Made by a program: the position numbers and the translations under genes
Shown here: one piece after another, positions 1 to 26,675 of the stretch
Position numbering within the stretch: position 1 is the stretch's first letter
Layout: each line of letters begins with the position of its first letter
Notes under the pieces: model-generated
What the model was told of the DNA's origin: nothing
The model's database searches: none
What the model saw: only the letters and a program-made list of their open reading frames with translations
Source: a virus
Lineage: Duplodnaviria; Heunggongvirae; Uroviricota; Caudoviricetes
Direction: 5' to 3' (one strand)
IMG/VR virus record: IMGVR_UViG_2522572021_000010
Length of the DNA stretch: 26,675 nt

Positions 1-1316
1 TCACGAGCCATAACCCAACTCCTTCAAATACCCTGCCATCTCAACTTCCAGCTTCGCCAGTTCCACCTTCAGTTGCTCACGCTCTGCTCGCACCGCCACC
101 AGGTCAATCTCATCCTCTTCTTCAAAGGTATCGACATAGCGCGGAATATTGAGGTTGTAATCGTTGTCCTGAATTTCCTTCAGGCTGGCAAGATAGGCGT
201 ATTTCTCGACGTTATCGCCATCACGGTAGGTCTTGACGATTTTCTTAATGTTTTCTTCGCTAAGCTGGTTCTGGTTTTTACCTGCCTTGAATTCACGGCT
301 GGCATCGATAAACAGCACCTTGTCATCAACTTTCTACTTTTTGAAAATCAGAATCGCAGCCGGAATCCCCGTACCGTAGAACAGTTTTTCCGGCAGACCA
401 ATTACCGCATCCAGCAAATTTTCGTCGATCAGTTTCTGGCGAATTTTACCTTCGCTGGAGCCACGGAAAAGCACACCGTGTGGCACAACTACGCCCATAC
501 GGCCAGTTCCCGGTTTCAGGGTTTCGATCATATGCGAGATAAAAGCGTAATCTCCTTTAGTCTTCGGCGGTACACCGCGACGAAAACGGCCAAACTTATC
601 GTTCTCGGCCTCGTCATGGCCCCACTTATCGAGGCTGAACGGTGGGTTAGCGGTCACGATATCAAACAGCATCAGGTCGCCATTTTTATCGAGCAGCTTC
701 GGGTTACGAATGGTATCGCCCCACTCGATTTTATGGTTGTCTTCCCCGTGCAGGAACATATTCATTTTCGCCAGCGACCACGTAGAACCGATCGCTTCCT
801 GACCGAACAAGGCATAGTTACGACTATCATGCCCGGAGACAATTTTACGCCCACACTTCATCAATAATGAACCGGAACCACAGGCTGGATCGCAGATGGT
901 ATCACCCGGTTGCGGATCGAGCAGTTCTGCAATCAGGTCCGAAACTTCCGGCGGGGTATAGAACTCCCCGGCTTTCTGCCCACCGCTGGCGGCAAAGTTT
1001 TTGATCAGGTATTCGTAAGCATTGCCGATAACGTCCAGCGTACCGACACGACTCGGCTTCAGGTTGAGATCTTCACCGGCGAAGTCTTCCAGTAGCTGAC
1101 GCAGTATGGTGTTTTTCTGTTTTTCTTCGCCAAGACGATCGGTGTTAAACGAAATATCCTGGAACACGCTTTTCCCGGCATCTTTCAGTTTGGTTCCGTT
1201 GGCTTCTTCGATTGCATGCAGAGCCTGATCGATACGCTCACCGTTACCCAGCTCATGGCGGCGTTCGTACAGCGCATAAAAGCTGGCACTTTTTGGCAGT
1301 ACAAAACGCTCGTTGG
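1..1316 (-). pseudogene. hsdM: Type I restriction-modification N6-adenine DNA methyltransferase subunit (HsdM), disrupted
   Basis: Two same-frame minus-strand ORFs (334-1167 and 1-318) carry gamma-class N6-adenine methyltransferase motifs DPACGSG and NPPF. They are separated by an in-frame TAG at 334-336. The frame stays open upstream to 1316, where it runs into the IS inverted repeat without a plausible start, so the N-terminus is missing. Confidence 0.75.
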
Positions 1317-1370
1317 TGAACCGCCCCGGGAATCCTGGAGACTAAACTTCCTGAGAAAGAGGTAAACAGG

Positions 1371-1697
1371 ATGACTAAAAATACTCGTTTTTCCCCTGAA
1401 GTCCGTCAACGGGCAGTCCGTATGGTTCTGGAAAGTCAGGGCGAATATGACTCACAATGGGCGACAATTTGTTCCATTGCTCCAAAGATTGGCTGTACGC
1501 CGGAGACTCTGCGTGTCTGGGTTCGCCAGCATGAGCGGGATACCGGGGGCGGTGATGGAGGGCTCACCACCGCTGAACGTCAGCGTCTGAAAGAGCTGGA
1601 GCGTGAAAATCGTGAACTGCGCCGCAGTAACGATATCCTTCGCCAGGCTTCCGCTTATTTTGCGAAGGCGGAGTTCGACCGCCTCTGGAAAAAATGA
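1371..1697 (+). CDS. IS3-family transposase OrfA (helix-turn-helix, leucine-zipper part)
   Basis: 108 aa ORF starting [16 protein letters not shown]; coiled-coil segment [13 protein letters not shown] typical of IS3 OrfA; ends in AAAAAATGA overlapping orfB. Confidence 0.9.
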
Positions 1698-2584
1698 TGC
1701 CACTGCTGGATAAGCTGCGTGAGCAGTACGGGGTCGGACCGCTATGCAGCGAACTGCATATTGCCCCGTCAACGTATTACCACTGTCAGCAACAGCGACA
1801 TCATCCGGATAAACGCAGTGCCCGTGCGCAGCGCGATGACTGGCTGAAGAAAGAGATACAGCGCGTATACGATGAAAATCACAAGGTATACGGTGTGCGT
1901 AAAGTCTGGCGTCAGTTGTTACGGGAAGGTATCAGAGTGGCCAGATGCACTGTGGCACGTCTCATGGCGGTTATGGGACTTGCCGGTGTTCTCCGGGGTA
2001 AAAAGGTCCGTACGACCATCAGCCGGAAAGCCGTTGCCGCAGGCGACCGCGTAAACCGTCAGTTCGTGGCAGAACGACCTGACCAGCTGTGGGTGGCTGA
2101 TTTTACTTACGTCAGCACATGGCAGGGCTTCGTCTATGTGGCGTTCATCATTGATGTGTTTGCCGGATACATTGTGGGGTGGCGGGTCTCATCGTCCATG
2201 GAGACGACATTCGTGCTGGATGCACTGGAGCAGGCGTTATGGGCCCGTCGACCGTCCGGCACGGTCCATCACAGTGATAAAGGTTCTCAGTATGTATCGC
2301 TGGCCTACACACAGCGGCTTAAGGAAGCCGGATTACTGGCATCAACAGGAAGTACAGGCGACTCGTATGACAACGCGATGGCGGAGAGCATCAATGGTCT
2401 TTACAAAGCGGAGGTAATACACCGTAAGAGCTGGAAAAACCGTGCAGAAGTGGAACTGGCCACACTCACGTGGGTGGACTGGTATAACAATCGACGATTG
2501 CTGGAAAGGCTGGGCCATACTCCTCCGGCAGAAGCAGAAAAAGCTTATTATGCTTCCATCGGAAACGATGATCTGGCAGCCTGA
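1694..2584 (+). CDS. IS3-family transposase OrfB (DDE integrase domain), probably expressed as OrfAB fusion by -1 frameshift
   Basis: 296 aa ORF in -1 frame relative to orfA, overlapping at ATGA; rve-type catalytic region (WVADFTYV ... HSDKGSQY ... DNAMAES). Confidence 0.9.
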
Positions 2585-2630
2585 GTTCACAGATAAAACA
2601 CTCTCCAGGAAACCCGGGGCGGTTCAGTGA

Positions 2631-2837
2631 TGGAGGGACGTTCGAGACAATATTGAGCGCCGTGCTTATGAAATTGCACTGGCATCACTGGAAGCAGAGC
2701 CAGTAGCATGGATGCATGTAAATAACGGCATCGGAATACCAGCAATAACAAGGAGTAAAGAGGTTGCAGAGAGTTGGTTATCAAAAGGCTGGTATGTCCA
2801 ACCCTTGCATCTAGCCCAGCCTGCATCAAAGCTATAG
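2631..2837 (+). pseudogene. Orphan 3' end of an unidentified plus-strand gene, truncated at the IS junction
   Basis: Open frame from just after a TGA at 2628-2630 to TAG at 2835-2837 (...RRAYEIALASLEAEPVAWMHVNNGIGIPAITRSKEVAESWLSKGWYVQPLHLAQPASKL), with no credible start; followed by an intrinsic terminator. Family not recognised. Confidence 0.3.
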
Positions 2838-2847
2838 AAATGAGCCA

Positions 2848-2875
2848 AAACGCCCTCTTCCAGGGCGTTTATTTT
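2848..2875 (+). terminator. Rho-independent terminator-like hairpin
   Basis: Stem AAACGCCCT (2848-2856), loop CTTCC, stem AGGGCGTTT (2862-2870), then ATTTT; directly downstream of the stop at 2835-2837. Confidence 0.5.
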
Positions 2876-2877
2876 AA

Positions 2878-2904
2878 TGCACAATAGTGCACAAATTTGC
2901 ACAA
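2878..2904. repeat. Three 10-bp-phased direct repeats of TGCACAA (candidate protein-binding array)
   Basis: TGCACAA at 2878-2884, 2888-2894 and 2898-2904, exactly one helical turn apart, followed by T7. A fourth copy sits at 2970-2976 next to the palindrome AAAAAACGCGTTTTTT (2976-2991) and a GGATCCGT direct repeat (2948-2955, 2959-2966). Confidence 0.6.
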
Positions 2905-3277
2905 TTTTTTTGAACGACTTTTTGCCCTTCCGGCCCCCGTGGCGGCTGGATCCGTCAAGGATCCGTGCGTGCACAAAAAAACGCGTTTTTTCTGCGCGCA
3001 GGTGACGGGGGAACAGCCCGCGTTTCAGGGGGTAAATAGCGTTCCCTTAACGATGTCGCAGCGACACGACAGAATGGCCGTATTTCTCACGCTGAGCGTG
3101 AAAAATACGTGAGGGATTCTGATTTGATGGGGTGAAAGGTAAGGCCGTCAAAATCGCACTGAGGCGGCGAGAACATGCAGTCAACGCGGTGGGATTGCGT
3201 AAGAGTCTGACCGTCGATGGTGGCGATAAACTGGAAGGCGTCGTGAAATTATCTGACTGATACAGGAGCTGGAGAGT

Positions 3278-3300
3278 CGGGGCATAAATTTTTTATGCCC
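3278..3300 (-). terminator. Stable hairpin 3' of the portal gene (possible Q-operon terminator or cos-proximal structure)
   Basis: GGGGCATAAA (3278-3287), loop TTT, TTTATGCCCC (3291-3300), 29 bp beyond the Q stop; no clear U-tract on the Q strand. Confidence 0.25.
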
Positions 3301-3328
3301 CGGCGAAGCAGCAGACAAGCGAAGCGCG

Positions 3329-11561: not shown

Positions 11562-12189
11562 GGCATTCACCCGCGTGGATGAAACCTTTGAGGCCATCCG
11601 CGACAGCCTGAATCAGCAGGCCATCAATAACATCGCCAGAAAGCTGGCACAGGATTTACGCCGCGCCCAGCAGGCGCGTATCCGGTCACAGAAAGCGCCG
11701 GACGGGACCGCGTGGACACCACGCAGACGCCGCGTAACCCGGATACAGGAACGCATTCGCTTTATCTGGAATAACGAAGCACGCACGCTGAAAAACTGGC
11801 ATCACGACACGGGGAAATACGGGCGAACCATTACCGGGTGGGATGAGGATAAAAACAATATCCGCACGTTTTACCGGGATGACATCGACCGTTTTCTGGA
11901 AATACGCACCCGGCGCATCAACCAGGACAGCACAAAGCGCGTCCCCATGTTCGTAAAACTGCGCACCGCCCGCTACCTGAAAGCCCGTGCAGATGCTTCC
12001 GGTGTGACGGTGGGTTACAGCGGCGTGGCCGCACGTATTGCACGCGTTCATCAGTTCGGTGAGCGCGATCAGGTTGCGCCGGGCATTTTCACCGATTACC
12101 CGGTACGTGAGCTGCTGGGTATCAGCCAGGCAGATGAGCGCCTGATTTATAACACGGTGCTGGGCCGGATTGCGGAGGCTGTACGGTGA
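11554..12189 (+). CDS. S: Tail completion / virion morphogenesis protein (gpS-like)
   Basis: Position immediately after R, overlapping its stop; the ATG at 11554 is preferred over the GTG at 11545; longer than P2 S, so the assignment is by synteny. Confidence 0.65.
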   Translation: MDKAFTRVDETFEAIRDSLNQQAINNIARKLAQDLRRAQQARIRSQKAPDGTAWTPRRRRVTRIQERIRFIWNNEARTLKNWHHDTGKYGRTITGWDEDKNNIRTFYRDDIDRFLEIRTRRINQDSTKRVPMFVKLRTARYLKARADASGVTVGYSGVAARIARVHQFGERDQVAPGIFTDYPVRELLGISQADERLIYNTVLGRIAEAVR

Positions 12190-12767
12190 GCGCAGAACTC
12201 ATGCGACTGCTGAGCAACATCATCCGTACCGGGATCATCTCTGAAGTTGATGAGGAATCCTGGTGCGTGCGCGTTCGCAGCGGCGAACTGGAAACAGGCT
12301 GGCTGCGCTGGAACACCACGCGCGCGGGAGCCTTCAATGTGTGGCTGCCGCCATCACCCGGCGAACAGGTGGTAATTGCCTGCATTGGCGGCAACCCGGA
12401 AACCGCCATGATAATTGGCAGCCTGTGGAGTGATGCCATTCCGGCCCCCGGCAAAAGCCTGAAAGAAATCGTGGTCAGCGCGCCGGATGGCGCGGTGTTC
12501 CGCTACGACGCGGACGCAGGCGCACTGAGCGCCAGCGGCATGAAAACAGCCACCCTGCAGGCATCCGTCAGCGTGACACTGGATACGCCCGTCGTGGAAT
12601 GCACAGACCTTCTGAGAACGGCGACGCTTGACGTCACAAAAGGGGGAAAGATGAGCGGCAATATCACGCACAGCGGCGGCAATTTCACCTCAAACGGCAT
12701 CACAGTGCATACGCATAAACACGGTGGCGTTAAAGGTGGCAGCGATTCGACAGGAGGCCCGCAGTGA
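12186..12767 (+). CDS. V: Baseplate spike / assembly protein V (P2 gpV homologue)
   Basis: 193 aa; IIRTGIISEVD, WLPPSPGEQVVIA and C-terminal HTHKHGGVKGGSDSTGGP resemble gpV. Confidence 0.85.
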   Translation: MSAELMRLLSNIIRTGIISEVDEESWCVRVRSGELETGWLRWNTTRAGAFNVWLPPSPGEQVVIACIGGNPETAMIIGSLWSDAIPAPGKSLKEIVVSAPDGAVFRYDADAGALSASGMKTATLQASVSVTLDTPVVECTDLLRTATLDVTKGGKMSGNITHSGGNFTSNGITVHTHKHGGVKGGSDSTGGPQ

Positions 12768-13114
12768 CAACCCGCTACACAGGAATGAACCCGGACGGAA
12801 CGGGAAACCTGAACGATATGGAGCACCTGAAACAGTCAGTCAGGGACATCCTGACCACCCCGCTGGCAAGCCGGGTTATGCGACGGGAATATGGCAGCCT
12901 TGTGCCTGATTTGATTGACGAACCCATGAATAACACCACGCGTCTGCAATGCATGAGTGCTGCCGTGATTGCGCTGACACGATGGGAACCCCGCATTGCC
13001 CTGGACGCTATCGACGTTGTCTGGAAGGCAGGAGGCCGCGCCGGGGTGACGCTGTCGGGCACTGTCATGCAGACCATGCAGAATGTTGAATTAACCATCA
13101 CGCTGAGGGAGTAA
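12764..13114 (+). CDS. W: Baseplate wedge protein W (gp25-like; P2 gpW homologue)
   Basis: 116 aa; GTG start after AGGAGG; MTTRYTGMN... and RVMRREYGS resemble P2 W. Confidence 0.85.
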   Translation: MTTRYTGMNPDGTGNLNDMEHLKQSVRDILTTPLASRVMRREYGSLVPDLIDEPMNNTTRLQCMSAAVIALTRWEPRIALDAIDVVWKAGGRAGVTLSGTVMQTMQNVELTITLRE

Positions 13115-13117
13115 ATC

Positions 13118-14014
13118 ATGCCTGCCGTTGACCTTTCCCAGTTACCGGACCCCGCCATTATCGCGGAGCCTGACTTTGAGGCAATTCTGGCTGACACAAA
13201 GGCCATGATGATTGCGGCTTATCCCGCCGAACAGCGTGAAGCCGTCTCCGCCGCGCTGGAGCTGGAATCGGAACCCCTGAACGTTATCGCCCAGACAACA
13301 GCGTTTCGTGAAATGCTGTTACGCCAGCGGGTCAATGAGGGGGCACGGGCCTGCATGTTAAGCCACAGCACCGGGACAGACCTGGACAACCTCGCGGGCA
13401 ATATGAACACAAAGCGCCTGACCATCACTCCGGCAACGGATACCACCGACGCGGTGATGGAGAGTGACACCTCGCTGAGACTGCGGGCGCAGCGGGCGTA
13501 CGACGGCCTGAGTGTTGCTGGCCCGTCAGGTGCATACGAGTATTTTGCCCGCAGCGCCAGCGGTCTGGTGCGTGATGCGCGGGCTATCAGTCCGTCTCCG
13601 GCCAACGTGACGGTTTCCATTCTGTCCACTGAAGGCGACGGCACAGCAACGGAGGCGTTGCTTAATACCGTTCGCGCCGTTCTGAATGCAGAGGATACCC
13701 GCCCGGTGGCCGACCGCCTGACCGTACAGAGTGCCAGAATCGTGACATGGCGGCTGAATGCAAAACTGTACTTTTACCCCGGCCCGGAATCCGAACCTAT
13801 TCTGGCTGCGGCTGAATCGTCGTTCAGGAAGTGGCTGGCTGAGCAGGGGCTTATCGGTCAGGACGTGGCGTTGTCCGCCATTGCTGCCGCACTGCATGTG
13901 CACGGTGTGCAACGCGTGGAGATAATCGAACCCACACAAAATATGGCCATCAGCGACATACAGGCGGCGCGCTGTGAGTCATTCACCATCAGCGAAGGTG
14001 GGCGTAATGAGTAA
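13118..14014 (+). CDS. J: Baseplate assembly protein J (P2 gpJ homologue)
   Basis: 298 aa; N-terminus MPAVDLSQLPDP..., WRQRVNE-like block, RPVADRLTVQSA and LHVHGVQRVE resemble P2 J. Confidence 0.85.
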   Translation: MPAVDLSQLPDPAIIAEPDFEAILADTKAMMIAAYPAEQREAVSAALELESEPLNVIAQTTAFREMLLRQRVNEGARACMLSHSTGTDLDNLAGNMNTKRLTITPATDTTDAVMESDTSLRLRAQRAYDGLSVAGPSGAYEYFARSASGLVRDARAISPSPANVTVSILSTEGDGTATEALLNTVRAVLNAEDTRPVADRLTVQSARIVTWRLNAKLYFYPGPESEPILAAAESSFRKWLAEQGLIGQDVALSAIAAALHVHGVQRVEIIEPTQNMAISDIQAARCESFTISEGGRNE

Positions 14015-16527: not shown

Positions 16528-17061
16528 ATGATGCACTTAAAAAACATTACTGCTGGCAACCCTAAAACAAAAGAGCAATACCAGCTAACAAAGCAATTTA
16601 ACATCAAATGGCTTTATTCAGATGATGGAAAAAACTGGTATGAGGAACAAAAGAATTTCCAGCCAGACACTTTGAAAATGGTCTATGACCATAACGGCGT
16701 TATTATTTGTATTGAAAAGGATGTTTCAGCAATTAATCCGGAAGGCGCAAGCGTCGTTGAATTACCTGATATTACAGCAAATCGCCGGGCTGATATTTCG
16801 GGGAAATGGATGTTCAAAGATGGCGTAGTGATAAAGCGAACTTATACCGAGGAAGAGCAGAGACAACAAGCGGAAAATGAAAAGCAAAGCCTGTTGCAAC
16901 TTGTCAGGGATAAAACCCAGCTATGGGACTCACAGCTACGGCTGGGCATCATTTCCGACGAGAATAAGCAGAAATTAACCGAGTGGATGCTCTTTGCGCA
17001 GAAAGTCGAATCTACAGACACCTCCAGCCTGCCAGTAACGTTTCCCGAACAACCAGAATGA
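16528..17061 (+). CDS. Tail fibre assembly chaperone (gpG/Tfa-like), paired with the current fibre C-terminus
   Basis: 177 aa directly after H; clear paralogue of the minus-strand ORF at 17090-17617 ([22 protein letters not shown] versus [22 protein letters not shown]). Confidence 0.8.
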   Translation: MMHLKNITAGNPKTKEQYQLTKQFNIKWLYSDDGKNWYEEQKNFQPDTLKMVYDHNGVIICIEKDVSAINPEGASVVELPDITANRRADISGKWMFKDGVVIKRTYTEEEQRQQAENEKQSLLQLVRDKTQLWDSQLRLGIISDENKQKLTEWMLFAQKVESTDTSSLPVTFPEQPE

Positions 17062-17089
17062 GAGAAGGCCCGATATCGGGCCTTAATTT

Positions 17090-17617
17090 TTACTCAGGCT
17101 TTTGTGGCCATTCGGGATTTGCTGTATCCACACGGCTGACCAGAACGCTGTAGCGTTCCCATGACTCCAGTCGTGTGCGTTCCTCATCCGTCGCCATATT
17201 CAGCCTGACAGCGCGTTCCAGTGGCTGAATAACGCTTTCAGCTTCAGAAAGCAACGCGACCTTTTGTGATTCGGCCTGTTGTTGCTGTTCGTCTGCTGTA
17301 TAAATCCGCTTAACCACAGTTCCGTCCTTAAACATCCACTTCCCTGAATCATCGGCACGACGATTGGCTGTTATATCTGGAATCTCAACGACACTAAAGC
17401 CTTCGGGATTAAGCGTTGAGGCATCTTTGGTTATGGCAACAATAATATTATTTTCGTCGTATACAATCTTTATGGTGTCGTCCTGAAAGTTATTTACTTC
17501 CTCATACCAGTTTTTACCGTCTTCGGACCATAACCAGATAACATCAAAATTCTTTGTTAGCTGATATTGTTCTTTTGTTTTTGGATTTCCGGACTTAATA
17601 TTTTTTAAATGCTGCAT
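17090..17617 (-). CDS. Alternative tail fibre assembly chaperone (Tfa'), inverted orientation
   Basis: 175 aa paralogue of the plus-strand tfa, immediately downstream of the alternative fibre segment on the minus strand. Confidence 0.8.
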
Positions 17618-17620
17618 AAT

Positions 17621-18499
17621 TTACACCTGTGCGACGTTATACCATGTGCCATTGATGTATTTTTGTATTGGTCTGAAGATGGCTTCATCATCGCCATCTA
17701 CTTCACCAATGATTCTTAATCCGGTAATTGCGTGTCCGGCTTTTTCATAACGACCACCACGCGCCATCAATTGAACAACACGCGTACCCAGGCGAACATC
17801 TTTTACATAGCGTGAATCAAAATTCCCCCAGTTGCTGGGCTGTATCTGACCGTTAACAGAAAATATTACCGAGTTATCTGTATTTCGCTGGCTATAGAAA
17901 TGCCATCCTGCCTCATCGCCTAACTCTGCAACTACTGGACGGGTTGAAGCACCCCATAAATTAAACATTGCATTCTTTGTGGAGTTGTTGGAGCTGGATA
18001 GCGTGAATTTTTTACCATCCCCGGCCTGAATATTTTTAAAAGCAATAGCCACTCCATTCTGAAAGCGGAATACACGCTGACTATTAGCATAAACATCCAG
18101 AATACCGTCTCCATTCTGTTTAAATCCGGTGTCATTATCACCAAGAACAATAGAGCTACCACCTAACGCATTCGTCGAACCAACTCCAAGACTGCCATTA
18201 ATGACAGCATTAACAAGAATATTTAGTGCATCCCATTTCAGCGTCATCAGGTCTTTTGTTGTGGTGCTCTGGCGGCTTCTCCATTTGAAATATTCATTGC
18301 CGTTGTCGCCTGTTTCAAACCACATGTATGAATCAGTGTCACCATCGGCATCATTTTTAAATCCAATCTTCGCCCAGTCAGTATTTCGAATCCAGGCAAG
18401 GATTGAGTCATTTTCAAAAGTAAGCCCACCGGACAAGGTATCGCCATTTTTTTGCACGGCGTTACCAGCCCTGTTTACCGTTTCCTGTAAACCGAGGTT
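17621..18499 (-). CDS. Promoterless alternative tail-fibre C-terminal segment (Sv'), to be fused to H after inversion
   Basis: Minus-strand frame open from the crossover site to 17621. Ends ...FRPIQKYINGTWYNVAQV, parallel to the H C-terminus. No independent start with a ribosome-binding site; the frame is in phase with the H constant region across the crossover. Confidence 0.7.
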   Translation of the reverse strand, partial: NLGLQETVNRAGNAVQKNGDTLSGGLTFENDSILAWIRNTDWAKIGFKNDADGDTDSYMWFETGDNGNEYFKWRSRQSTTTKDLMTLKWDALNILVNAVINGSLGVGSTNALGGSSIVLGDNDTGFKQNGDGILDVYANSQRVFRFQNGVAIAFKNIQAGDGKKFTLSSSNNSTKNAMFNLWGASTRPVVAELGDEAGWHFYSQRNTDNSVIFSVNGQIQPSNWGNFDSRYVKDVRLGTRVVQLMARGGRYEKAGHAITGLRIIGEVDGDDEAIFRPIQKYINGTWYNVAQV

Positions 18500-18507
18500 T
18501 TAAATAA
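18482..18507. repeat. Right invertase crossover site (gix/pix-like)
   Basis: TTCCTGTAAACCGAGGTTTTAAATAA, an inverted copy of the site at 15804-15829; lies 54 bp upstream of the invertase start. Confidence 0.7.
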
Positions 18508-18561
18508 TGGCCGTTTCTGGCCTGCATGGCATGATTTGCGCTTTTGGACGGGAGATTCAGT

Positions 18562-19161
18562 GTGCTGATTGGCTATGTAAGGGTATCAACAAATGACCAG
18601 AATACAGACCTGCAACGAAACGCTCTTGTTTGTGCAGGATGTGAACAAATATTTGAAGATAAATTAAGCGGGACAAAGACAGACCGACCGGGATTAAAAC
18701 GCGCTTTAAAGCGCCTTCAAAAAGGTGACACGCTGGTTGTCTGGAAACTGGATCGCCTCGGGCGAAGCATGAAACATCTGATTTCTCTCGTCGGGGAACT
18801 ACGGGAGCGAGGGATTAATTTTCGCAGTCTGACCGACAGCATAGACACATCTTCTCCAATGGGGCGTTTTTTCTTCCACGTGATGGGTGCCCTGGCTGAA
18901 ATGGAACGTGAATTAATTGTTGAACGTACACTGGCCGGGCTGGCGGCAGCGCGCGCAAGGGGGCGCACAGGCGGACGTCGACCGAAGCTGACAAAAGAAC
19001 AGCATGAGCAAATAGCAAGGCTAATCAAAAACGGGCACGACAGAAAACAACTGGCAATAATTTACGGCATTGGCACATCGACGATTTATCGTTATCACCC
19101 TGTAGGCGATATACAGACTGAAGAAACAACCGGGCAGACTCAGGAAAATGAAAACCGCTAA
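18562..19161 (+). CDS. pin: Serine DNA invertase, Hin/Gin/Pin/Cin family
   Basis: GTG start after GGACGGGAG; N-terminus LIGYVRVSTNDQNTDLQRNAL with the catalytic Ser; C-terminal helix-turn-helix (GTSTIYRY). Near-identical over most of its length to the e14 Pin sequence as remembered. Confidence 0.85.
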   Translation: MLIGYVRVSTNDQNTDLQRNALVCAGCEQIFEDKLSGTKTDRPGLKRALKRLQKGDTLVVWKLDRLGRSMKHLISLVGELRERGINFRSLTDSIDTSSPMGRFFFHVMGALAEMERELIVERTLAGLAAARARGRTGGRRPKLTKEQHEQIARLIKNGHDRKQLAIIYGIGTSTIYRYHPVGDIQTEETTGQTQENENR

Positions 19162-26534: not shown

Positions 26535-26675
26535 ATGTCGCAAAAATCGCTTACGGCCATCACGTTCTGCGTGACGGTAATCCTCATCATCTGGATGCTG
26601 CACGGTTCGCTGTGTGAAATACGGATGAGCTTCTGGGGAGCGGAGTTTGCGGCGTTCTTACAGTGTAAGCAGTAA
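26535..26675 (+). CDS. Hok/Gef-family type I toxin (small membrane peptide)
   Basis: 46-aa ORF (too short for the ORF track) after AAGGAG: MSQKSLTAITFCVTVILIIWMLHGSLCEIR...AAFLQCKQ. Has the N-terminal transmembrane helix, the SLCEIR motif and the AAF C-terminal pattern of the Hok family; ends exactly at the window edge. Confidence 0.7.
   Translation: MSQKSLTAITFCVTVILIIWMLHGSLCEIRMSFWGAEFAAFLQCKQ

Follow-up and report, generated by a model that had tools for sequence, protein, structure and literature searches.

The window analysed here, a stretch of 26,675 nt, is the sequence of E. coli O145:H28 strain RM12581 and is found unchanged in strain RM13514. In the PGAP annotation, a type I RM island extends leftward of it as far as yecA, while rightward the phage late region is followed by ogr, hok, and leuZ; the order yecA, island, insertion sequence (IS), late region, and leuZ is collinear with that of sister strains. 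The type I RM system was carried by a leuZ integrative element, the integrase gene of which has been reported as missing in various O145:H28 strains (PMC7067040); some strains also have a P88/P2-like phage at leuZ, on the right-hand side of the island. The features of the window are collected in Table 1.

Table 1. Features at the IS629 junction and in the adjoining prophage remnant (positions within the window).
Feature	Position	Strand	Evidence or remark
hsdM, type I RM methylase, pseudogene; 3′ 1,316 bp of 1,524-bp gene	1–1316	−	Pfam N6_Mtase, 2.4e-80
IS629/IS1203-type IS of the IS3 family, apparently intact	1317–2626	+	Inverted repeats, Pfam domains; 1,310 bp
IRL and IRR	1317–1341 and 2602–2626		25-nt imperfect inverted repeats, 92% complementary, TGAACC...GGTTCA
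IS629 orfA	1371–1697	+	Pfam HTH_Tnp_1, 6e-13
ALIL pseudoknot, stimulator of IS3-family programmed −1 frameshifting	1652–1768	+	Rfam RF01497, 120.2 bits, E = 4.4e-31
A-rich slippery run in the orfA/orfB overlap	~1689–1695
IS629 orfB	1694–2584	+	Pfam rve, 4.8e-28, plus HTH_21
Filler GTGATGGAG	2627–2635		9 bp at the deletion joint, from neither partner
3′ remnant (202 bp) of 261-bp, 86-aa phage accessory gene WP_000206716.1	2636–2837	+	Alignment to RM8988-C1 prophage
Intergenic region before portal gene, presumed cos region	2838–3328		Terminator-like hairpin at 2848–2870
Retained late region of P2-like (P88-like, Peduoviridae) prophage	3329–26345		PGAP annotation

The left flank of the IS had been described in the first-pass annotation as the interior of a minus-strand hsdM, and both the N6_Mtase match and alignment to an intact homolog bear this out. 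The remnant aligns to residues 71–507 of the 507-aa HsdM of strain ECCHD184, so that 210 bp, equivalent to the N-terminal 70 codons, have been lost from the 5′-end. An in-frame TAG is present at 334–336, and PGAP labels the gene “internal stop; incomplete.” As a result of the truncation and the TAG, no intact open reading frame combining HsdM_N and N6_Mtase lies beside hsdS and hsdR, and hsdM is a pseudogene. In RM12581 hsdR is split by IS600; three lesions, namely truncation of hsdM, the stop codon within it, and the insertion of IS600 into hsdR, have left the adjacent type I RM system dead. The published methylome of RM13514 comprises just the Dam motif and CTGCAG/DTGCAG motifs (PMC3893438).

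The element itself has the hallmarks of the IS3 family, namely a length of ~1.3 kb, imperfect terminal repeats of the form 5′-TG...CA-3′, and two overlapping, frameshift-fused open reading frames. It begins at position 1317; the start at 1168 given for this feature in the first-pass annotation was arbitrary. Copies from O111 and O157 strains labelled “IS1203 family” by PGAP are 96% identical to it over 1,310 bp, which falls inside the 4–5% by which IS629 subtypes are reported to differ (PMC3271280). The copies found at the same hsdM junction in sister strains are 100% identical to that of the window. The RM12581 genome contains ~31 IRR ends, that is, ~31 copies of IS629.

The bases immediately outside the IS are TGG (1314–1316) on the left and GTG (2627–2629) on the right, and no direct repeat of 3 or 4 bp was found at its edges after the boundaries had been refined with the inverted repeats, in agreement with the earlier description. 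This absence is informative at this locus since strain 12E115 contains another IS629 that is cleanly flanked by AAC duplicates, and the IS600 within RM12581 hsdR has a duplication of 3–4 bp. In O157 genomes, matching duplications accompany just 21 of 47 IS629 copies (PMC3271280). We take the missing duplication to be the signature of a secondary deletion and do not count it against membership in IS629/IS1203.

To the right of the IS the plus-strand gene remnant is coding in frame from position 2637, its translation representing the C-terminal 66 residues plus stop of WP_000206716.1, for which no Pfam family was found. In the intact prophage of RM8988-C1 (alignment from 15001 on) this is the last gene before the cos region. 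The proposal that the right flank is the 3′-end of an unrelated plus-strand gene therefore holds, with the refinement that the 9-bp filler comes first: GTGATGGAG had been missed, and the phage match begins at 2636 rather than directly at the IS. The joint reads GGCGGTTCAGTGATGGAGGGACGTTCG. Position 1 of the linear P88-like record LR595891.1 (Xuanwuvirus P88_4B11) corresponds to approximately position 2923 of the window. The 19-mer of P2 cos is not present in the window because the phage is P88-like.

The retained late genes encode portal, terminase, scaffold, capsid, lysis, baseplate, tail fiber with invertase, sheath/tube, tape measure, D, and ogr functions, and follow the P2-like order Q-P/O-N-M-L ... 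FI-FII-E-T-U-D-ogr (PGAP annotation and P88-like matches). This region is 99.7% identical to the intact RM8988-C1 prophage over 16.9 kb. Escherichia phage P88 and its Xuanwuvirus relatives (Peduoviridae) share the same late order, with 95–99% nucleotide identity across the cos–portal region; the intact relative is ~37 kb in length, whereas the window copy is without its whole early arm. The arm attL-int-C-cox-B-A is absent from the window and from its genomic surroundings on both sides, as had been noted for int, C, cox, B, and A, and is present in sister strains. The remnant retains cos, ogr, and every late operon. Having no attL, int, repressor/cox region, or replication gene A, it should be unable to excise or replicate on its own and is, judging by its gene content, probably not inducible. 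For annotation purposes, the “prophage” of the RM12581/RM13514 outbreak strains is best described as a non-autonomous remnant.

At least 16 O145 genomes share the left junction, ...CGCTCGTTGG|TGAACCGCC, along with an IS that is 100% identical. The parental arrangement exists in strains FWSEC0002, 99-3311, and 16003. In 16003, where the sequence was read directly, the identical hsdM|IS629 junction is followed by a complete prophage; the match coordinates of FWSEC0002 and 99-3311 indicate that both have the IS, the entire remaining 4.4 kb of the island, and a complete prophage. The parental right junction is IRR|ACTTCGCGAC. When the right flanks are placed on one reference map, the 12E115/RM9872 type lies at 0, RM11626-C1 at +696 bp, 16003 at +4,434 bp, the window (RM12581/RM13514) at +17,776 bp, and 95-3192 at +35.3 kb, within the tape-measure gene. 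There are thus five nested right-flank states on one invariant left junction, which supports one-sided loss. The phage truncation is private to RM12581 and RM13514, as is the IS600::hsdR junction, which was sought as a route to a closer relative.

In the ancestor of the near-identical RM12581 and RM13514, 17,776 bp directly to the right of the IS were lost, leaving the IS and its left junction untouched. The island part of the lost DNA comprises int′, a hypothetical gene, a DNA polymerase gene, an integrase fragment, and a further hypothetical gene; the phage part comprises attL, int, the repressor/cox region, replication endonuclease A, parM, and others, together with 59 bp from the start of the gene that directly precedes cos. 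The loss amounts to ~12 kb of the ~37-kb prophage, about one third, plus ~5.7 kb of the island. A 13,341-bp block carrying an island integrase fragment, attL, int, the repressor/cox region, replication endonuclease A, parM, and other genes is intact at 100% identity in nine O145 genomes. A search for the block as a unit gave 20 records with at least 80% of it in one place, none of them from RM12581 or RM13514. Thus no intact block of early genes lies elsewhere in these two genomes, and comparison with the sister alleles shows the deletion directly; nor do the early genes follow beyond a simple insertion. Among the genomes compared, none represents an intermediate or the direct parent of the RM12581 lineage, and the deletion step is accordingly put at 13.3 to 17.8 kb.

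The IS-mediated loss of the phage early region put forward in the first-pass annotation is hence supported, with “early half” reduced to about one third, but the simplest form of that proposal, a single IS-mediated event that took the 5′-end of hsdM together with the early genes of the phage, is very improbable. The window viewed by itself invites that reading, since both truncated partners adjoin the IS. An identical hsdM′|IS629 junction, however, stands beside a truncated island integrase and an intact prophage in 16003, FWSEC0002, and 99-3311, and it recurs in RM9872, whose leuZ site is free of any prophage, a contradiction of the single-event reading. In the O145:H28 lineage an IS629 became the link between hsdM (at codon 71) and a truncated island integrase; the hsdM truncation thus happened before the phage truncation and did not depend on it. 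We conclude that the hsdM truncation is the older and that there were two separate IS-associated deletions, not one.

The later of these is specific to the lineage and starts from IRR, the right end of the resident IS629; it was probably produced by transposase-dependent adjacent deletion. The cleaved IRR end would be linked to a more distant site on the same molecule, and the join might have been made by the primase-polymerase known as IS-excision enhancer (IEE), reported for O145:H28, where iee sits on SpLE1-like elements (PMC9397093); a join made by IEE would explain the 9-bp filler. IS3-family elements delete adjacent DNA of varied length while the IS is kept (PMC8860574), and the intactness of the present copy, including its frameshift signal, was counted in favor of adjacent deletion. 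The lack of a clean IS-end-to-target joint, with 9 extra bp in between, was counted against it; the IS end abuts the new flank directly and precisely at three other nested junctions, but not at that of the window. The principal competitor, which we regard as unlikely, is that a second IS629 inserted in direct orientation into the pre-cos gene and that RecA-dependent recombination deleted the interval, leaving a hybrid IS without matching duplications. This would yield the same end product, a single IS with an unchanged left junction, in a genome in which, at ~31 copies, IS629 is abundant. In O111:H8 strain 8E, moreover, an IS1203/IS629 abuts the homologous gene 17 bp upstream of the window joint, which makes the site a feasible IS629 target, and as the compared IS copies of the lineage are all 100% identical a hybrid would be invisible. 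Against this, a transposed copy would touch the phage sequence directly and no filler would be expected, no O145 genome has an IS629 in the pre-cos gene, and the four end points at one IS end would each require their own correctly oriented second insertion.

Two further readings would leave the early region undeleted or the join unreal. Inversions mediated by IS elements and prophages do occur in EHEC genomes (PMC8743559), and an inversion or translocation between IS629 copies might have relocated the early region elsewhere in the chromosome; the result of the block search and the collinear gene order from yecA to leuZ make this extremely improbable. IS629 is also a multi-copy, 1.3-kb repeat, the collapse of which during assembly could give a false join. 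The chance of such an artefact is negligible: the genome records of RM12581 and RM13514 present an identical 4.5-kb junction sequence, both carry the unique 9-bp filler, and the flanking order is otherwise collinear.

As to the origin of the filler, GTGATGGAG is absent from the intact prophage, and in complete E. coli genomes it flanks no other IS629 copy. It does not belong to a natural allele of the phage gene, as no complete E. coli genome matches beyond window position 2636, nor was it carried in from another IS629 copy with this right flank, a 59/59 match being restricted to RM12581 and RM13514. Near matches to the IS end plus GTGATGGAG proved to be unrelated flanks brought up by BLAST ranking. 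The hexamer CATCAC, the reverse complement of 6 nt of the filler, occurs in the parental right flank as a chance-level match, which renders short-template arguments weak. The complete 9-mer is identical to positions 1552–1560 of the window, within the IS (IS629 positions 236–244); a 9-mer would find such a match in one or the other strand of the IS by chance with a probability of ~0.01–0.02. Directly in front of this site lies an internal pseudo-end, which matches the IRR terminus at 10/11 positions. A speculative and rather doubtful reading is that GTGATGGAG is a templated insertion copied from IS629 236–244, the footprint of microhomology-primed, template-switching end joining in an IS-adjacent deletion, with the primase-polymerase IEE, acting inside the transpososome, as one candidate enzyme. 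If true, the filler would be a natural in vivo trace of such end joining.

Similar deletions have been described in other systems. In the IS629-associated deletions and polymorphisms of EHEC O157 (Kusumoto et al. 2011, via PMC9943667 and PMC9397093), the IS is the same, the host type likewise carries SpLE1-like iee elements, and the deletions start exactly at the IS end and degrade prophages. A range of a few nucleotides to >40 kb is reported for IEE-promoted deletions of IS-flanking regions, within which the window deletion falls; by comparison with these cases, the IS of the window was kept, not excised, and its joint has the 9-bp filler. The adjacent deletions of IS3 studied by Kanai et al. 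2022 (PMC8860574) also proceed outward from IRR with the IS preserved, with end points showing little or no homology (at most 6 bp), and form with or without IEE. Those data derive from a plasmid reporter and range from sub-kb to kb, whereas at the present locus the chromosome is a natural one, the deletion measures 18 kb, and several independent natural end points form a series. Defective prophages of EHEC, such as the O157 Sakai pool and the O145:H28 prophage deletions (PMC7067040), have also lost integration, immunity, and replication functions while keeping structural genes, with IS elements at the breakpoints; the present one differs in being a P2/P88-like myovirus, not lambdoid, and in that the breakpoint IS comes from a neighboring integrative element rather than from the phage.

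IS629-mediated genome decay in EHEC is ordinary, already known biology, and the locus, which shows IS elements eroding neighboring islands and prophages, opens no new question. It does provide a compact natural case, in which a single IS629 copy anchors a one-sided deletion ladder of 0.7 to 35 kb across O145:H28 lineages; the ladder could act as a lineage marker. The sole odd detail is the match of the 9-bp filler to an IS-internal site.

The first 4.5 kb of the window match E. coli O145:H28 RM12581 (NZ_CP007136.1, from 2,381,378) and RM13514 at 100% over their full length, and the whole junction is absent from every other complete E. coli genome (5,426 searched). Gene order in RM12581 begins with yecA and a 132-bp leuZ-3′ repeat, followed in the island by DUF262, hypothetical, M48 peptidase, IS600-split hsdR, cold-shock-domain, YecA-family, hsdS and truncated hsdM genes, and then by IS629, the phage late region (portal gene to ogr), hok, a hypothetical gene, leuZ-cysT-glyW and pgsA. 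No int, repressor, cox, B or A gene lies on either side of the IS in RM12581, which bears out the absence of early genes noted in the first-pass annotation.

Features at and around the IS629 junction (window coordinates)
Feature	Position	Strand	Details
hsdM remnant	1-1316	minus	N6_Mtase domain
IS3-family element	1317-2626 (1,310 bp)		25-nt inverted repeats at ends, TGAACCGCCCCGGG... and ...CCCGGGGCGGTTCA
orfA	1371-1697		HTH_Tnp_1 domain
orfB	1694-2584		HTH_21 and rve domains
ALIL frameshift pseudoknot	1652-1768		RF01497, 120 bits
Conserved P88-like intergenic region	2838-3328		

Judged by its sequence, the element is an intact IS629/IS1203-type member of the IS3 family; IS629 is the commonest IS reported in these strains (PMC3893438). 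Its 96% identity to copies named IS1203 by PGAP lies inside the 4-5% divergence reported among IS629 subtypes (PMC3271280). Bordering it are TGG (left) and GTG (right), which confirms the claim that it has no target duplication. The earlier description of the flanks likewise holds: the left one is the interior of hsdM, which lacks the first 70 codons of an intact 507-aa homologue and contains an in-frame TAG at 334-336, while the right one aligns from 2636 with the last 202 bp of an unrelated 261-bp phage gene, which in the intact prophage is the final one ahead of the cos region and portal gene.

At least 16 O145 genomes share an identical hsdM-IS629 left junction and a 100% identical IS, with variable DNA after the right inverted repeat (IRR). 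Each right flank was mapped on the RM8988-C1 reference and offsets were counted from the 12E115 state. The IRR is followed by the truncated island integrase in 12E115 and RM9872 (IRR joined to ACTTCGCGAC; offset 0), island DNA in RM11626-C1 and RM12522-C8 (+696 bp), the interior of a second integrase fragment in 16003 (+4,434 bp), a 9-bp filler and then the pre-cos phage gene in RM12581/RM13514 (+17,776 bp), and the interior of the tape-measure gene in 95-3192 (window 20202; +35.3 kb). By coordinates, FWSEC0002 and 99-3311 possess a 12E115-type junction, a 4.4-kb island remainder and a complete prophage, and represent the undeleted parent arrangement. This layout of integrase fragment, hypothetical gene, attL and prophage is widespread, with similar arrangements in ETEC H10407 and others, which indicates that the window state is the derived one. 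The leuZ integrative-element integrase is reported missing in various O145:H28 strains (PMC7067040), a finding congruent with the deletion ladder.

A 13,341-bp early phage block (RM8988-C1 locus L003:1660-15000) is present at 100% in nine O145 genomes. At least 80% of it is found in one place in 20 records, and neither RM12581 nor RM13514 is one of them; in these two it has therefore been lost rather than moved as a block. RM9872 carries the hsdM′-IS629-int′ junction and no prophage at leuZ, from which it follows that hsdM was truncated independently of the phage. Thus, of the proposal that an IS-mediated deletion or rearrangement removed the phage early region together with the hsdM 5′ end, the deletion stands and the joint event does not: two separate deletions occurred at this locus, the filler lying at the younger joint. 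IS-adjacent loss of this type is already well known in EHEC.

When one IS junction is fixed and the other side shows a ladder of end points, the signature is that of IS-adjacent deletion, which probably produced the window joint. IS3-family elements have been shown by experiment to delete adjacent DNA while staying in place themselves, at end points of little homology (PMC8860574), and O145:H28 is reported to carry iee, the IS-excision enhancer gene (PMC9397093). Simple insertions at the same locus do have duplications, of AAC at the second IS629 in 12E115 and of 3-4 bp at the IS600 within hsdR. It is rather unlikely that a second IS629 entered the phage gene and the two copies then underwent homologous recombination. 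This route keeps some probability because all IS copies compared are identical, so that a hybrid would escape notice; yet it leaves the filler unexplained, every rung of the ladder would need its own second insertion, and no such intermediate was found among complete genomes.

The filler (2627-2635, GTGATGGAG) matches neither joined partner, and occurs as filler only in RM12581/RM13514. It is identical to IS-internal positions 1552-1560, the match reaching 11 nt with the following GG, which is common to the phage target. Directly preceding the internal copy (site 1543-1562) is CCGGGGGCGGT, which agrees with the IRR terminus CCCGGGGCGGT at 10 of 11 positions. For a random 9-mer drawn from the window, the probability of a match to either strand of the IS is 0.01-0.02. 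These matches are suggestive, though not conclusive, of a templated insertion, coincidence being the alternative; a 6-nt reverse-complement match to the filler in the parental flank shows the danger of over-reading short matches.

Other IS629 rearrangements were observed. RM8988-C1 (NZ_CP035770.1, L010 18326-19635), whose sequence was read directly, carries another subtype, 95% identical and in opposite orientation, between an hsdM′ shorter by 10 bp and an int′ shorter by 3 bp; one explanation is that a second IS inserted 6 bp to the right of the first, creating a TCG duplication, and the first was then lost with 16 flanking bp. The window-type junction is likewise missing from RM8843-C1, RM12275-C1 and RM8995-C1. 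In 12E115 (L009 10041-11350) and RM9872 (L012), the island's 639-bp hypothetical gene is broken by a second IS629, which is inverted and flanked by a clean AAC duplication, and the pair could allow inversion of the intervening 1.4-kb segment. In the Stx1a prophage of O111:H8 strain 8E (L004 2731-4060), a NinE gene fragment is linked through an IS1203/IS629 to a homologue of the small pre-cos gene, at a point 17 bp upstream of where the joint lies in the window. Here an IS-associated rearrangement arose independently, in a lambdoid phage, at nearly the same position.

The hsdR gene of the restriction-modification system to which hsdM belongs is split by IS600 with a 3-4-bp duplication (L001 about 12050-13312, left of the window), an insertion private to RM12581/RM13514 among complete genomes. 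The type I system is presumably non-functional, in agreement with the RM13514 methylome, for which only the Dam motif and CTGCAG/DTGCAG motifs were reported (PMC3893438). Between hsdS and hsdR lie two extra genes, encoding a 1.8-kb cold-shock-domain protein and a YecA-family protein (L001 16310-18800), with M48 peptidase and DUF262 genes downstream; these are possible accessory defence genes lying within the type I operon.

The linear genome record of Xuanwuvirus P88_4B11 starts at about window 2923, consistent with cos lying in the conserved intergenic region. The remnant keeps the late operons, ogr and presumably cos, and should neither excise nor replicate because attL, int, immunity and replication gene A are missing. 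In the intact prophage, ParM and a partition/stability protein are encoded downstream of the replication endonuclease (L003 12190-13465); this actin-type module for segregation, carried by a P2-like phage, is gone from RM12581. The tail-fibre region (16528-19161) contains two assembly genes in opposite orientation, an ORF for an alternative fibre C-terminus, and a serine recombinase (18562-19161); it resembles an invertible host-range switch of the Cin/Gin type. A Hok/Gef-family toxin gene (26535-26675) lies inside the right end of the prophage, with ogr on one side and the leuZ attachment site on the other; its stop codon is the exact end of the window.
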